Positions 6,806 to 44,265 of a DNA stretch of 64,000 bases are shown piece by piece. The notes beneath the pieces are model-generated. The model was not told the DNA's origin, did not search any database, and worked only from the letters and a program-made list of their open reading frames with translations. Source of the stretch: Escherichia coli (GTDB lineage Bacteria > Pseudomonadota > Gammaproteobacteria > Enterobacterales > Enterobacteriaceae). Both the position numbers and the translations under genes were made by a program. The stretch's first letter is position 1. Each line of letters begins with the position of its first letter. The DNA is taken from NCBI RefSeq assembly GCF_041248615.1, contig NZ_CP158426.1. One strand, given 5' to 3'.

Positions 6806-8631
6806 TGAAATTGCAAAAGCAATTACTGGAAGCTGTGGAGCACAAACAGCTACGCCCGCTGGATGTGCAATTTGCCCTGACCGTGGCGGGAGATGAACAT
6901 CCTGCCGTCACCCTCGCGGCGGCACTGTTAAGTCATGATGCCGGAGAGGGACACGTTTGTTTGCCGCTTTCACGACTGGAAAATAACGAGGCGTCGCATC
7001 CGCTGTTGGCGACCTGTGTCAGTGAAATCGGTGAGCTACAAAATTGGGAAGAATGCTTGCTGGCTTCTCAAGCGGTCAGCAGGGGAGATGAACCCACGCC
7101 GATGATCCTCTGTGGCGATCGTCTTTATTTGAATCGCATGTGGTGTAACGAGCGCACAGTGGCACGCTTTTTCAACGAAGTGAATCATGCCATTGAGGTT
7201 GATGAAGCTCTACTGGCGCAAACCCTGGACAAACTTTTTCCAGTAAGCGATGAAATTAACTGGCAAAAAGTTGCGGCGGCAGTGGCGCTGACGCGGCGGA
7301 TCTCGGTGATTTCCGGCGGCCCTGGCACCGGTAAAACGACCACCGTAGCGAAGTTGCTGGCAGCGTTAATTCAAATGGCCGACGGCGAACGCTGCCGTAT
7401 CCGTCTGGCTGCACCAACGGGTAAAGCTGCCGCGCGCTTAACCGAATCTCTCGGCAAGGCTTTGCGACAGTTACCGCTGACCGATGAACAAAAGAAACGC
7501 ATTCCGGAAGATGCCAGCACTTTGCACCGATTGCTGGGCGCGCAGCCGGGTAGCCAGCGTTTACGTCATCATGCCGGTAACCCGCTGCATCTTGATGTGC
7601 TGGTGGTAGATGAAGCGTCAATGATCGATCTGCCTATGATGTCGAGACTGATCGACGCCTTGCCCGATCATGCGCGAGTGATCTTTCTCGGCGATCGTGA
7701 TCAACTGGCCTCGGTTGAGGCTGGGGCTGTGCTGGGCGATATCTGCGCTTATGCCAACGCGGGCTTTACCGCCGAGCGTGCCAGGCAGCTAAGCCGCCTG
7801 ACGGGGACTCACGTTCCGGCAGGAACCGGCACAGAAGCGGCATCTTTGCGCGACAGTCTCTGCCTGCTGCAAAAAAGCTATCGTTTCGGCAGCGATTCTG
7901 GCATTGGTCAGTTAGCTGCGGCGATCAACCGTGGTGATAAAACGGCAGTGAAAACCGTTTTTCAGCAGGATTTTACTGATATCGAAAAACGGCTTTTACA
8001 GAGCGGCGAAGATTATATTGCGATGCTTGAGGAAGCTCTTGCGGGTTACGGACGTTATCTGGATCTGCTGCAAGCGCGTGCCGAGCCGGATTTAATCATT
8101 CAGGCGTTCAATGAGTACCAGCTTTTGTGCGCCCTGCGGGAAGGGCCGTTTGGCGTGGCTGGACTGAATGAGCGAATTGAGCAGTTTATGCAACAGAAGC
8201 GCAAAATTCATCGTCATCCGCACTCTCGTTGGTACGAAGGTCGACCGGTGATGATTGCCCGTAATGACAGCGCGCTTGGGTTGTTTAATGGCGATATCGG
8301 TATTGCGCTGGATCGCGGGCAGGGGACGCGCGTCTGGTTTGCGATGCCGGACGGCAATATTAAGTCTGTGCAACCGAGTCGCTTGCCAGAGCACGAAACT
8401 ACGTGGGCGATGACGGTACATAAATCGCAGGGATCGGAGTTCGACCATGCGGCGTTGATTTTGCCGAGCCAACGCACGCCGGTAGTAACGCGAGAGCTGG
8501 TTTATACCGCGGTGACCCGCGCGCGTCGCCGTCTGTCGCTGTATGCCGATGAGCGCATATTAAGTGCGGCAATCGCCACTCGTACTGAGCGGCGCAGTGG
8601 TCTGGCGGCGTTGTTTAGTTCACGGGAATAA
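6805..8631 (+). CDS. recD: RecBCD helicase subunit RecD
   Basis: 608 aa; Walker [11 protein letters not shown]; ATG overlaps recB TAA by 1 nt (TAATG), consistent with translational coupling. Confidence 0.95.
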
Positions 8632-8640
8632 ACGTAATTG

Positions 8641-8681
8641 CCGGATGCGACGTACGAGTGTTACGCATGTCGCATCCGACG
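8641..8681. repeat. REP-like palindrome between convergent recD and argA (likely bidirectional terminator)
   Basis: ccggatgcgacg...cgtcgcatccgac inverted repeat seen directly in sequence. Confidence 0.6.
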
Positions 8682-8692
8682 ATTTTCATCGC

Positions 8693-10024
8693 TTACCCTA
8701 AATCCGCCATCAACACTTTGGATTTACGCTGGTAGTTGTACAACTGCTTTTTGCTCTCGGGCAGTAAATCAATATCCACTGGGGTAAATCCACGTTCCTG
8801 GAACCAGTGAATACTGCGCGTGGTCAGCACAAACAATTTGCTTAAGCCGCTCTGCTTCGCCTGAGCGGCAATGCGTTCCAGCAGAACTTCACCCCTTGAT
8901 GAACTGCGGTAATCCGGGTGAACTGCCACACAGGCCATTTCCCCAATCTTCTCTTCCGGGAACGGATAGAGCGCGGCGCAGGCAATAGTCGTGTTATCGC
9001 GCTGAATAATGGTGAATTTGTCGATTTCCATCTCCAGCTGCTCGCGAGAACGGCGTACCAGAATACCTTGCTGCTCCAGTGGGCGAATCAACTCCAGAAT
9101 ACCGCCAATATCGTTGATTGTTGCGCGACGAATCTGCTCGGCGCTTTCCATCACAATCTGCGTACCGATACCGTCGCGTGAGAACAACTCTTGCAACAGC
9201 GCGCCATCTTCCTGATAACTGATTAAATGACAGCGACGCACGCCGCTGCGGCAGGCTTTCACTGCGCCACGCAAAAAGCGCACCGTACCGGAGTTGTAAT
9301 CGCCTTTCTCTTCCTGGGCTTCTACCCGCGCTTGCGCTTCGTTAGGGAAAAGTTCGGAGACAATATCACCGTCGTCATTAGTGACGCCCTGGGAAGAGCA
9401 AAAACCAATCATCTTTTCAGCTTTCAGTTTGATGGCCAGTTGAGTGGCAATCTCTTCCGAGGTCAGGTTAAAGCTCTCGCCAGTGACTGAAACAGCGACC
9501 GGCCCCATTAGCACTATTGCACCGCTGTCCAGTTGACGATGGATCGCGTCTTCATCAATCCGCCGGATACGCCCGCTATGGCAGTAATCCACGCCGTCAT
9601 CGACGCCCAGCGGCTGGGCAATAATAAAATTGCCACTGACGACGTTGATATGCGCGCCCTGCAGCGGCGTGTTATTGAGACTCATCGACAGGCGAGCAGT
9701 AATATCCAGTTGCAATGTTCCCGCAGCCTGCTTCACCAGTTCCAGTGTTTTGGCGTCGGTCACACGTATATTCTTGTGATACAGCGGTTCGTGGTGATGC
9801 GCAGCCAGATTTGCGTCGATCTGCGGACGTGCGCCATAGACCACCACCAGACGGATGCCGAGGCTGTGCAACAACCCGATATCATTAACGATACTGGAGA
9901 AATTCTCATGCTCAATGGCTTCACCGCCGAGCATGATGACAAACGTTTTTCCCCGGTGGGTATTGATATAGGGAACCGAATGGCGGAATCCCTCGACCAA
10001 CTCGGTTTTACGTTCCTTTACCAC
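8693..10024 (-). CDS. argA: N-acetylglutamate synthase
   Basis: 443 aa from GTG at 10024 ([13 protein letters not shown]...) with AAGAGG ribosome-binding site upstream; the track ORF extends 22 codons further upstream. C-terminal GNAT domain. Confidence 0.9.
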
Positions 10025-11582: not shown

Positions 11583-11659
<77 letters not shown>

Positions 11660-11692
11660 TCACCGTACTGCTTTTACTTCATCAAATTTGAT

Positions 11693-11769
<77 letters not shown>

Positions 11770-11802
11770 TCACCGTACTGCTTTACTTCATCAAATTTTA
11801 AT

Positions 11803-11879
<77 letters not shown>

Positions 11880-13273: not shown

Positions 13274-13371
13274 GCCGGATGCGGCGTGAACGCCTTATCC
13301 GGCCTACAAATCATGCAAATCCAAAATATTGCAGGAGTTATGTAGGCCTGATAAGCGTAGCGCATCAGGCA
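13274..13371. repeat. BIME: two REP elements in inverted orientation
   Basis: gccggatgcggcgtgaacgccttatccggcctaca (13274-13307) and tgtaggcctgataagcgtagcgcatcaggca (13341-13371) match the REP consensus. Confidence 0.8.
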
Positions 13372-16364: not shown

Positions 16365-16570
16365 AAAAAAAAGCACCGCAATTAGGCGGTGCTACATTAA
16401 TCACTATGGACAGACAGGGTAAATGTACAGGAAGTGAAAAAAGGTAGCTTTGCTACCATGGTCTGAATCGCAGACCAATTGCAAACACAACAACACAACA
16501 TCACAACCGTAAGCCAAAAGTTCACCAGAACACGCATTCCGATAAAACTTTTCGTTCCGGCTCAGGAAGT
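16365..16570 (-). ncRNA. gcvB: GcvB small regulatory RNA
   Basis: Minus strand reads ACTTCCTGAGCCGGAACGAAAAGTTTTATCGG...GTTGTGATGTTGTGTTGTTGTGTTTGCAATTGG...GCACCGCCTAATTGCGGTGCTTTTTTTT, including the G/U-rich R1 region and intrinsic terminator; divergent from gcvA as expected. Confidence 0.9.
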
Positions 16571-34033: not shown

Positions 34034-34579
34034 GTGGACGATTTGACCGCACAAGCCCTGAAAGATTTTACTGCACGCTACTGCGATGCGTGGAATGAAG
34101 AGCATAAAAGCTGGCCGTTGAGTGAGGAACTGTACGGCGTTCCTTCACCGTGCATTATTTCAACCACCGAAGACGCCGTATACTGGCAACCCCAGCCGTT
34201 TACCGGGGAACAAAATGTAAACGCGGTTGAACGCGCTTTTGATATTGTGATACAACCCACAATTCATACCTTTTATACGACTCAGTTTGCCGGGGATATG
34301 CACGCGCAGTTTGGCGATATTAAACTGACATTGCTGCAAACCTGGAGTGAAGACGACTTCCGTCGGGTGCAGGAAAATCTGATTGGTCATCTGGTGACTC
34401 AGAAAAGGCTAAAACTGCCGCCCACGCTATTTATCGCGACGCTGGAAGAAGAGTTAGAGGTGATCTCGGTGTGTAATCTCTCCGGTGAAGTGTGCAAAGA
34501 GACGCTGGGAACACGTAAACGGACGCATTTAGCCTCAAATCTTGCGGAATTCCTTAATCAACTTAAGCCTCTTCTGTAA
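34034..34579 (+). CDS. syd: SecY-interacting protein Syd
   Basis: 181 aa. Confidence 0.9.
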
Positions 34580-34789
34580 TCCAAATACCCCATCTGGTTG
34601 TGAGAGATCTCTTACAGACTCTGTAGGAGATCGCCAGGAAATAAGCGAATACTTAAAAAAATAAGAATCGTTATTTTCATTTAAAATCAATATATTGCTT
34701 GTCAATTCTTAACTTTCATATGAAATTTTCCTTAAGGCATTGTCTGTAAGCGCCTTGTAAGACTTCGCGAAAAAGACGATTCTATCTTC

Positions 34790-35155
34790 GTCGACAGGGA
34801 GTCAGACAACGAAGTGAACATCAGGATGATGACACTTCTGAAGGACACACCAGGATGGTGTTTCAGGGAAAGGCTTCTGGATGAAGCGAAGAGGATGACG
34901 CAGGACGCGTTAAAGGACACCTCCAGGATGGAGAATGAGAACCGGTCAGGATGATTCGGTGGGTCAGGAAGGCCAGGGACACTTCAGGATGAAGTATCAC
35001 ATCGGGGTGGTGTGAGCAGGAAGCAATAGTTCAGGATGAACGATTGGCCGCAAGGCCAGAGGAAAAGTTGTCAAGGATGAGCAGGGAGCAACAAAAGTAG
35101 CTGGAATGCTGCGAAACGAACCGGGAGCACTGTGAATACAGTGCTCCCTTTTTTT
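34790..35155 (+). ncRNA. csrB: CsrB small RNA (CsrA-sequestering)
   Basis: Begins GTCGACAGGGAGTCAGACAACGAAGTGAACATCAGGATGATG; about 17-18 CAGGA(U/A)G / AGGA motifs seen; ends in the GGGAGCACTGTGAATACAGTGCTCCCTTTTTTT terminator; lies between syd and yqcC. Confidence 0.9.
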
Positions 35156-35200
35156 ATTCCTGCTATCCTTCGCGGCAGTTTTTCTTATTGAGGTTGCTTT

Positions 35201-35530
35201 ATGACCACTCATGACCGCGTTCGTCTCCAGCTGCAGGCGCTTGAAGCATTACTGCGTGAACATCAGCACTGGCAAAACGATGAACCCCAGCCGCATCAAT
35301 TTAACAGTACCCAACCGTTCTTTATGGACACCATGGAACCACTGGAGTGGTTGCAGTGGGTGCTGATCCCGCGAATGCACGATTTGTTAGATAACAACCA
35401 GCCGTTACCGGGCGCTTTTGCCGTCGCACCCTATTATGAAATGGCGCTGGCGACGGACCACCCGCAACGCGCGCTTATTCTGGCTGAGCTGGAAAAACTG
35501 GATGCTCTTTTTGCGGATGATGCGAGCTAA
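35201..35530 (+). CDS. yqcC: DUF446 protein YqcC
   Basis: 109 aa; stop overlaps truC start. Confidence 0.85.
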   Translation: MTTHDRVRLQLQALEALLREHQHWQNDEPQPHQFNSTQPFFMDTMEPLEWLQWVLIPRMHDLLDNNQPLPGAFAVAPYYEMALATDHPQRALILAELEKLDALFADDAS

Positions 35531-36312
35531 TGCTGGAAATACTCTATCAGGATGAATGGCTGGTTGCGGTAAATAAACCCTCCGGCTGGCTGGTTCACCG
35601 CAGCTGGCTGGATCGCGACGAGAAAGTAGTGGTCATGCAAACCGTGCGTGACCAGATAGGCCAGCATGTGTTTACTGCTCATCGTCTGGACCGACCAACT
35701 TCTGGTGTGTTGTTGATGGGATTATCCAGCGAGGCCGGACGGCTGCTGGCACAACAGTTTGAACAGCACCAAATCCAGAAACGTTACCATGCGATTGTGC
35801 GCGGCTGGTTGATGGAAGAAGCAGTTCTGGATTATCCACTGGTGGAAGAACTGGACAAAATCGCTGATAAATTTGCCCGCGAAGATAAAGGCCCACAGCC
35901 AGCAGTGACGCATTATCGCGGTCTGGCGACCGTAGAAATGCCGGTAGCGACCGGACGTTACCCGACCACGCGCTACGGCCTGGTGGAACTGGAGCCGAAA
36001 ACCGGACGTAAGCACCAGCTCCGTCGCCATCTTGCCCATTTGCGCCACCCGATTATTGGCGACAGCAAACATGGTGATTTACGCCAGAATCGCAGCGGTG
36101 CTGAACATTTTGGCCTTCAGCGGTTAATGCTGCATGCCAGTCAGTTGTCATTGACGCATCCTTTTACTGGCGAGCCGCTGACTATTCACGCGGGCCTGGA
36201 CGACACCTGGATGCAGGCGTTATCACAATTTGGCTGGCGGGGTCTGCTTCCTGAAAATGAAAGGGTTGAGTTCAGTGCGCCATCGGGTCAGGATGGAGAG
36301 ATAAGTTCCTAA
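35530..36312 (+). CDS. truC: tRNA pseudouridine65 synthase
   Basis: 260 aa, RluA-family motif HRLDRPTSG. Confidence 0.9.
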
Positions 36313-41508: not shown

Positions 41509-44265
41509 TTACCCGAGAATTTTGCTGGCTTCGCGCGCTACATTATCCATCTCGTCCAACAGTTCCAGCAGCTCCGGCTCCAAATCTTCTTCTTTAGTAC
41601 CGCTACGTAGCTGTTGTTCGATCAGTTGGCAGAGATTCTTCATACGCGGCACACCGCTATAGCCGCAACTGCCATGCAGTTTATGAATCAAATCAACCAG
41701 GCCTTCCGGGTTTTCTCCAACCAGCTGTTCCTCAACTTTGTTGCGAACTTCAGGCAGGAAATCGAGTAACATTTGCAGCATATCGCGCGCTAAATCGGTT
41801 TTTCCTGCTGCCTGGCGTAGTGCCAGTTGCCAGTCGAGGGTCGCATTCGGGTTCACCACAATTTCGTTGACTTCGGGCGTCACGACGCGAGAGGAAATAC
41901 CGCTGCCAGGCTTGTAGCGCAACAACAAATTATGCAATCGCTCTTCTTCAATCGGTTTCGCCAGATAATCGCTCATCCCTGCGCCAAGCAGCTTCTCTTT
42001 TTGCCCGGCCATTGCATGCGCCGTTACCGCGATAACTGGCGTTTGTTGCTGATGGGGGAGCTGGTGGATGAGTTCGCAGGCCCGAATGCCGTCCATGTCC
42101 GGCATTTGAATATCCATTAAGATCAAATCGAACGGCATCTGTTTCGCCCGTTCAACCGCCTGATGCCCGCTATCGCAAAGTTCCACATGTTGCACCATAT
42201 CTTCCAGCAATGCGCCGATAAGTTTCAGGTTAGCGGGGTTGTCATCAACCGCCATGACTGTCATTGCCAGCTTACTTTCATCGGTTACAGGCAAAAGCGT
42301 GTTTTGTTTGTGATGACAAAATTCCGTCAGGGCAGGTAACAGGCGCGTAGGTGTTAATGGTTTCAGCAGACACGCGCCGATACCATCTTGCTTAAGTTTT
42401 TCAGCATTGACTTGTGCATGGCAAGGAAGTGCCAGCATCAGAAAATCGGTCATCGATACCGCTTTCGCTAATCGCTCATGTTGCATTGTTAGCGGCTCGC
42501 GGAAGGTCACCGCAATGCCTAATAACATCATGTCGTAATGCGCGGGAGGCAGCGCGGAGAATGTTGGGCTATAAACCACTTCCAGCGGCGTTTCACTTAA
42601 AATATCCAGCGTGCATTGCGCTGCTGCGGAGTTTGGTTCGACATAGGCCAGGCGCTTGCCGGCGAGGCACTGGGTGGATGGCCCTTCGATAATAATGTTC
42701 GGATTCAGATCGAGATTAATGTGGAACCAGAAAGTTGAACCGCGATTCGGCTGGCTATGGAACGAAATATCGCCGCCCATTTCATTAACCAGTTTTTGTG
42801 TAATCACCAGCCCCAGCCCGGTGCCACCATGACGGCGGGAAATACTGGCATCAGCCTGTCGGAAGGCCTGGAATAAGCGCGATTGATCGCGTTCAGGAAT
42901 ACCAATGCCGGTATCCCGAATCTGCACTTCAATCTGCACTTTGGTATTACTCAGCGCACGTTTTTCTACCAGAATATCAATGTTGCCATTCTCGGTGAAT
43001 TTAATTGCATTCCCTACCAGGTTAGTGATGATTTGCTGTAATCGCAGTGGGTCGCCAATTACGTTATCGGGCACGTCGCTCTTAATATTGAGCGTCAGTT
43101 CCAGCCCTTTATCGTGAGAAGAATGTGCCAGCAGGGTAACGACTTCATCCAGCGTGCTGCGTAGTGGGAATGGAATACTTTCCAGAATCAGCTTACCCGC
43201 TTCCAGTTTCGAGAAGTCGAGAACATCATTAATAATTGCCAGCAAATTATTTGCCGAACGTTCAATCGTATTCAGGTGATCGCGCTGCGTTGGTGTTAAT
43301 TCTGTTTTCAGCGTCAGGCGAGTAAAGCCAATAACACCATTCAGTGGTGTACGCAGCTCGTGTGACATATTTGCCAGAAACTCGGATTTAATACGCGCCG
43401 CTTCCTGGGCGCGCTTTTTCGCCAGATCCAACTCAACGTTCTGAATTTCCATCTGCTCCAGCGTTTCACGCAGATCGGACGTCGCCTGGTCGATATTGTG
43501 CTGCATCTCTTCGTGATAAGCAGCCAGCGACATTGCCATCGAGTTGATACCGTTTTTCAGCATATCCAGCTCGCCGAGCATAAATCCTTCCACCCGGCTG
43601 TCGAGTTGCCCGCGACGGATGCGGTCGACGGTATTCACCATATTGCGAATCGGACCGGTTACATCGCGCATTAAGCGCCAGCCAAAAATAAGCGCAATAC
43701 CGATACAAAACAGCATCATCACGCTGGAAATAAAGATCTCTTTATATTGCTGCAAGCGAACCGATTTAAGATCCAGCTCAAGCGCAATATATCCCAACAT
43801 ATTTTGACTATTTTTGGCATCGCTACTGGGCGATTCGTCGGGGGAGTAACTCTCAGAAATAATCGGTGTGCGGAGGATCATAATATCGCCGTCACGAGTG
43901 ACAGTGAGCTGGCGAGGAAACGGCACGTTGCTGCCGAGCTGCATTGATGAGGGATCAAGATGAAAATTGGAGGTGACAAAGAGTCGGTTATTTTCATCAT
44001 AAACCGAAATCGCGCGAACAATATCGGAATGGCGACGATGCAGTACGCTTATTAACTGACCGATAGATTCGCGATTTTGCAGGCTCATGCCATATTCAGT
44101 AGAAACTGCAAGCGGCTCAATAATGCTGGCTCCGGCATCTTCCAGTTGACGCTGCAAATCGTTATAGCGATGCACAACGAAAAAGATACTCAGCAATAAA
44201 CCAATAAGGACGGTCGGTGCCAGGATCAGAATCATCATGCGTGCGCGCAGGCTGTAGTTGGTCAT
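41509..44265 (-). CDS. barA: Hybrid sensor histidine kinase BarA (partner of UvrY)
   Basis: 918 aa with HAMP, HisKA/HATPase, receiver and HPt domains. Confidence 0.95.

Follow-up and report, generated by a model that had tools for sequence, protein, structure and literature searches.

Locus organization and comparison with K-12

The window analysed here is a 64-kb stretch (64,000 nucleotides) of the Escherichia coli contig NZ_CP158426.1, to which all positions refer, and its features relevant to this study are collected in Table 1. The genes syd and yqcC are separated by a gap of 621 bp (34580-35200), given as 620 bp in an earlier note made from the letters of the window, and both flanking genes lie on the csrB strand. 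When aligned to K-12 MG1655, the gap displays an equal length and differs at 8 of its 621 positions, and the K-12 annotation carries at this place, between yqcC and syd, the ncRNA csrB (b4408, 'small regulatory RNA CsrB'). The K-12 coordinates were transferred onto the window, thus providing the csrB limits of Table 1. The earlier note had placed the RNA at 34790-35155, of which the start is exact and the end lies 3 nt before the one given by the annotation and by Rfam (35158).

Table 1. Coordinates of the features at the syd-yqcC locus and elsewhere in the 64-kb window
Feature	Position	Strand	Basis or remark
syd	34034-34579	+	product identical to K-12 Syd at 180/181 aa (99%)
predicted UvrY (SirA) binding site, inverted repeat TGTGAGAGATCTCTTACA, 18 nt	34599-34616	.	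exact match to the published site
partial repeat TGTAGGAGA	34622-34630	+	read from the sequence; fits the description in PMC4682653
ORF1, 62 aa, GTG start, judged spurious	34732-34920	-	antisense to the csrB 5' third and promoter
csrB (CsrB sRNA, 369 nt)	34790-35158	+	Rfam RF00018, K-12 orthology, UvrY-repeat numbering for the 5' end
sense frame, 46 aa	34814-34954	+	intact in 5/66 loci among the matches listed
third antisense frame	34863-35000	-	intact in 4/66 loci among the matches listed
ORF2, 71 aa, ATG start, judged spurious	34997-35212	-	antisense to the csrB 3' half and terminator
csrB intrinsic terminator	35123-35155	+	11-bp stem and 4-nt loop (35123-35148), then T7 (35149-35155); terminator scan
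yqcC	35201-35530	+	product identical to K-12 YqcC at 107/109 aa (98%)
barA, sensor kinase	41509-44265	-	918-aa ORF, identical to K-12 BarA at 918/918 aa
three tandem tRNA-Met (CAU) genes, 110-nt spacing	11583-11879	-	three Rfam matches with identical scores
ES036 (CssrF) sRNA match	13307-13349	+	RF02751, 46.5 bits against a gathering score of 37.6; short 43-nt model
GcvB sRNA, full-length	16365-16570	-	Rfam RF00022, 199 bits, E 1e-46

The window and K-12 share the syd-csrB-yqcC arrangement, the 369-nt length of the RNA, its terminator and a UvrY box at -183/-182, as well as the 22 GGA motifs and the layout of the hairpins, and the two RNAs are identical at 367 of 369 positions (99%). The first of the two differences lies at 34841, where the window has A and K-12 has C, so that CAGGAC becomes AAGGAC with the GGA retained; the second lies in the terminator stem at 35129 (A in the window, G in K-12) and turns a G-U pair into an A-U pair. 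The remaining six substitutions of the gap are found in the A/T-rich part that separates the UvrY box from the promoter (34660-34703, roughly -130 to -87). As far as can be read from the sequence, none of these substitutions would imply a functional difference. On a larger scale, the gap sequence was matched in 5,425 of 5,426 complete E. coli genomes with 95-100% identity (100% in three of them).

Identity of the RNA

Since the late 1990s, CsrB has been a textbook case of an sRNA acting as a protein sponge, and the earlier note had recognized it in the gap between syd and yqcC. This assignment is borne out by both the covariance model and the orthology with K-12. Indeed, the Rfam search which the earlier note had proposed as a check was run, and the CsrB/RsmB model (RF00018) matched the plus strand at 34799-35158 with 382.9 bits (E 2.2e-111), far above the gathering score of 71. 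The match extends over model positions 1-356 of 356 and is not truncated. In addition, the RNA is flanked by syd and yqcC, which share its strand, and is nearly identical to the annotated K-12 csrB. The presence of csrB at this locus is therefore confirmed, and it was already known; the identification is correct but ordinary.

A GGA-rich RNA closed by a terminator could also be another member of the Csr/Rsm clan, such as CsrC or RsmX/Y/Z, since hairpins with GGA loops and a terminator are common to all of its members. As these features are shared across the clan, motif counts alone could not separate one member from another. However, within clan CL00106 Rfam retains the best family only, which here is CsrB over its entire model, and the UvrY box of the window is the perfect csrB version and not the weaker csrC version. 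The length of 369 nt, the synteny with syd and yqcC and the 99% identity to K-12 csrB fix the RNA as CsrB, and we regard its being another clan member as extremely improbable.

The known sponge RNAs of this clan illustrate both the common principle and the differences. CsrC, the second CsrA sponge of E. coli, sequesters CsrA by GGA-loop hairpins as CsrB does, but it is shorter and encoded at a different locus, which in K-12 we take to be the yihA-yihI intergenic region; the RNA of the window is not CsrC. It was reported that csrC is activated by UvrY via an upstream inverted repeat weaker than that of csrB and is independent of IHF (PMC4682653), and its length is listed as 254 nt (PMC5331693). 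The sponge principle of CsrB is also that of RsmB in Erwiniaceae and of RsmX/Y/Z in Pseudomonas, the latter belonging to Rfam families separate from CsrB. Among the matches listed, the homologues of Erwinia and Pantoea have the 3' third and the terminator in common with CsrB and contain 12-24 GGA, but in Erwiniaceae the RNA is shorter and covers that of E. coli only in part (in nhmmer, starting at about position 25-120).

Density of GGA motifs

On the plus strand, the csrB segment (34790-35158) contains 22 GGA, which can be broken down by context into 14 AGGA, 9 CAGGA[U/A/C]G, 8 AGGAUG and 6 exact CAGGAUG, compared to 2 GGA on the antisense strand. The figure of about 17-18 CAGGAUG or AGGA motifs, previously obtained by eye, was a fair one with regard to AGGA and ANGGA taken together (19 when counted by hand), while the exact CAGGAUG occurs 6 times only and GGA itself 22 times. 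Over the entire 64-kb window, GGA showed no general enrichment (1572 found for ~1685 expected). Since this total is uninformative on the csrB locus, a sliding-window count was used in its place. When both strands were covered in windows of 360 nt, the mean over the 64 kb was 4.4 GGA (sd 2.3) with a maximum of 13 outside csrB, and AGGATG, which occurs 8 times in csrB, was found at most once in any other window of this size. Thus, the density of GGA and A(N)GGA on the transcribed strand lies far over the background.

Short motifs can of course cluster by chance, and the stretch might then be a purine-rich or low-complexity region devoid of function. The contrast between 22 GGA and at most 13, and between 8 AGGATG and at most 1, in the other 360-nt windows argues against this, as does the restriction of the enrichment to one strand. 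Moreover, the motifs are kept site by site: among the matches listed, each CsrB homologue of 63 species contains 20-27 GGA, most individual GGA sites are kept in 55-63 of the 63 species, and the stems of these RNAs covary (see below). The probability that we leave to a chance cluster is close to nil, and the motifs are those of CsrB.

Structure and covariation

The homologous loci were gathered from species-representative genomes by means of a conserved 3' motif (TCANGGATGAGCAGGGAGCA), which provided at least 120 loci. In nine of them, from unrelated phyla, nhmmer detected no similarity to CsrB, and these were dropped as chance matches (extracts L003, L004, L017, L023, L067, L087, L105, L117 and L119). 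At least 113 of the retrieved extracts were CsrB homologues according to nhmmer, with 10-28 GGA on the sense strand and 1-4 on the antisense strand.

The Rfam consensus structure comprises 12 hairpins, namely the terminator and 11 others that each display a GGA in the loop; this is the loop count that the earlier note had suggested as a second check. Of 21 GGA located within the Rfam span, 19 are entirely unpaired. The thermodynamic ensemble agrees, with a mean unpaired probability of 0.81 for the GGA triplets vs 0.44 over all positions, and the RNA folds better than 100 of 100 dinucleotide shuffles (MFE z-score -4.45). When the Rfam structure was placed on the alignment of 63 enterobacterial species (among the matches listed), 96.2% of the cells were paired, compared to 36-50% in slid controls in which the 3' partners had been moved by 1-3 columns. 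In the same alignment, both partners changed in 21 of 54 pairs. Five measures were compared with 500 column shuffles, and no shuffle attained the observed value on any of them. The GGA motifs are therefore displayed in hairpin loops and single-stranded linkers whose neighboring stems are backed by covariation. Covariation was likewise seen in additional local hairpins of the MFE fold (35001-35017, 35030-35040 and 35046-35057). As for the long-range helix of the MFE fold that pairs 34805-34810 with 35063-35068, it finds little support in the species compared (67.8% of cells paired, one compensatory pair) and is therefore not claimed.

The 3' end of the RNA is formed by a Rho-independent terminator, as had been expected from the note's description of a strong one closing the gap RNA. 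Its stem (GGGAGCACTGT/ACAGTGCTCCC) has 11 bp, of which 7 are G-C pairs, and is followed by T7. This stem corresponds to helix 12 of the Rfam consensus, and among the matches listed it is paired in 100% of the cells over the 63 species, with compensatory changes at 2 pairs.

Regulatory region and the BarA-UvrY system

The sequence TGTGAGAGATCTCTTACA was described as the UvrY-P site of E. coli csrB by Zere et al. 2015 on the basis of ChIP-exo and DNase I footprinting, with the repeat centred at -183/-182 relative to the csrB +1 and followed after 5 bp by a partial repeat (TGTAGGAGA), and with an IHF site between the repeat and the promoter (PMC4682653). In the 64-kb window, it has a sole match when up to 3 mismatches are allowed (0.01 expected by chance), so that the predicted UvrY-P site of the BarA-UvrY regulon is present upstream of csrB at the published distance. 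Placing the centre of the repeat (34607/34608) at -183/-182 sets the +1 at 34790, in agreement with the K-12 annotation. Among the matches listed, the repeat was kept in all 61 species with enough upstream sequence, with 0-3 mismatches and at -180 to -184. Note that when 34400-35400 was scanned for sigma-70 promoters, neither strand yielded a promoter-like site. The lack of a consensus promoter is expected for an activator-dependent promoter, and the start of csrB consequently rests on the K-12 annotation and on the position published for the UvrY box.

The gene of the sensor kinase BarA is located in the same window, 6,351 nt from the 3' end of CsrB, and the gene order is that of K-12 and of strain KE55. 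It had indeed been noticed that barA lies 6 kb away, and its product is entirely identical to that of K-12. Going by what is published on this system, BarA would phosphorylate UvrY, and UvrY-P bound to the 18-nt repeat at -183/-182 would, with the assistance of IHF, activate the transcription of csrB into a 369-nt ncRNA ending at the intrinsic terminator. About 22 GGA are displayed by this RNA, for the most part in short hairpin loops or single-stranded linkers, and each of these motifs resembles the site to which the CsrA dimer binds preferentially. One CsrB could thereby sequester many CsrA dimers, and the control exerted by CsrA on its mRNA targets would be relieved. For the strain studied here, the near-identity of the RNA to the characterised K-12 CsrB suggests that it would bind and sequester CsrA, and its transcription, its CsrA binding and its dependence on UvrY and IHF are expected from the literature.

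Small open reading frames overlapping csrB

Four frames overlap csrB (Table 1), two of which, ORF1 and ORF2 on the minus strand, had been reported in the earlier note as artefacts that lie inside or overlap the sRNA. Both are present at exactly the coordinates it gave. Both overlap csrB, but ORF1 lies only partly inside it, as 131 of its 189 nt fall in CsrB while the others belong to the promoter region, and ORF2 extends over the first 12 nt of yqcC. One or both could instead be genuine small-protein genes, perhaps young, restricted to Escherichia and antisense to csrB. In favor of such genes, both frames are open with a start codon in the window and are open in K-12 too, and the product of ORF2 is found in public protein collections within a cluster of 636 members.

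The integrity of the frames was examined in 66 full-length orthologous loci aligned with their flanks, a frame being considered intact when start codon, reading frame and stop codon were kept without any internal stop. Among the matches listed, ORF1 was intact in 4 of the 66 loci, all from E. coli and close Escherichia, and ORF2 in 1 of 66, namely the window itself. The frames are thus not preserved among orthologous loci and are broken in most of them, already within Escherichia. As an example, ORF1 carries a stop codon in E. albertii, whose RNA is 96% identical. Similarly, ORF2 has ATA at its start position in a second E. coli genome, and it displays a 1-nt indel causing a frameshift, together with 3 stops, in three further lineages of Escherichia (extracts L072, L096 and L007, the last being E. 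albertii).

Coding signals were looked for in several other ways. No excess of variation at the third codon position was found, the values for the three positions being flat in ORF1 (0.152/0.140/0.156) as well as in ORF2 (0.122/0.130/0.102). A Pfam scan with the products of the four csrB-overlapping frames gave no match at E<=1. In a collection of 15 billion proteins, the exact ORF1 product was absent, and the exact ORF2 product occurred in a handful of records that are unnamed or called 'hypothetical protein, partial [Escherichia coli]'. No CDS is annotated at csrB in K-12 or in the best 12 of the 5,425 matching RefSeq genomes. As antisense frames of 60-116 aa are common nearby, e.g., at 34160-34390 (76 aa) and 35722-36072 (116 aa), the sizes of ORF1 and ORF2 are unremarkable. 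The ribosome-binding sites are poor, since the Shine-Dalgarno spacing read from the sequence is improper: GGAG abuts the GTG of ORF1 with zero spacing and stands 12 nt before the ATG of ORF2. Neither frame is served by a promoter-like site within the region scanned above. On the side of the RNA, a study combining RNA-seq and RIBOseq in EHEC EDL933 found sense CsrB to be abundant, gave 0.04 as its ribosomal coverage value and chose it to illustrate untranslated ncRNAs in a figure (PMC5331693).

These observations make it very unlikely that ORF1 or ORF2 is a real gene, and they support the view that both are artefacts, with frames that are not conserved, no coding signal, no Pfam match and no annotated CDS. 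The same slight probability applies to an Escherichia-restricted micro-protein, maybe from a very young gene, encoded by the 62-aa or 71-aa antisense frame or by the 46-aa sense frame, all three of which are open only within Escherichia among the matches listed. If true, such a micro-protein would make csrB a dual-function or bidirectionally expressed locus. Altogether, we consider it almost certain that 34790-35158 on the plus strand is E. coli csrB, encoding a 369-nt ncRNA that would be activated by UvrY and would sequester CsrA, and that the small frames overlapping it are chance reading frames.

With regard to biology, the csrB of the window, being 99% identical to the K-12 gene, adds nothing new. 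The practical value of these results lies in annotation: for this window, the correct annotation is one in which the RNA is flagged and ORF1 and ORF2 are suppressed. The gene is named only in the curated K-12 record, while no feature of any kind is annotated at the locus by PGAP in the best 12 of the 5,425 matching RefSeq E. coli genomes. These blank records reflect an annotation gap and are not counter-evidence. Conversely, the presence of the ORF2 product in databases as a 'hypothetical' protein means that the artefact occasionally reaches them via gene callers.

CsrB loci in other genomes and other RNAs of the window

Some E. coli isolates depart from the general picture at this locus. Out of the 5,426 complete genomes, the csrB gap is unmatched in 1 and matched with less than 80% coverage in 22. 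Two places were matched in at least one genome, and one place lies on a plasmid. These unmatched, partial or double gaps could correspond to deletions, insertions or duplications of csrB.

Among the matches listed, a single CsrB copy was found at all other enterobacterial loci, in contrast to Enterobacillus tribolii DSM 103736 (NZ_QRAP01000005.1), which contains three tandem full-length CsrB genes ~610 bp apart on the minus strand (extract L076:7700-9299). The copies are located at 7700-8078, 8311-8690 and 8922-9299, and each of them matches RF00018 with 232-239 bits and has about 25 GGA. Such a tandem amplification of the CsrA sponge would raise its dosage. In Pseudescherichia vulneris NBRC 102420 (L047:3729-4118, minus strand), CsrB is ~16 nt longer than its relatives owing to an internal direct duplication (GGTTTATGGATGAACAGGGTTTATGGATG). 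This duplication occupies columns 269-284 of the 63-species alignment and adds one GGAUG unit, and the RNA retains a full-length Rfam match (277.5 bits); it provides an example of RNA growth by repeat duplication.

An enterobacterial csrB was also found on a 420-kb contig of the assembly 'Chryseobacterium sp. 18061' (CACSKA010000005.1, L122:2527-2895, minus strand), a genus of Bacteroidota. It is 82% identical to the RNA of the window, with a UvrY box at -182 that has one mismatch, and it most likely results from contamination or from a mislabelled assembly.

Besides csrB, the Rfam search matched other RNAs in the window (Table 1), among which the three tandem tRNA genes presumably resemble initiator tRNA-fMet, in an arrangement that we take to recall metZWV of K-12.
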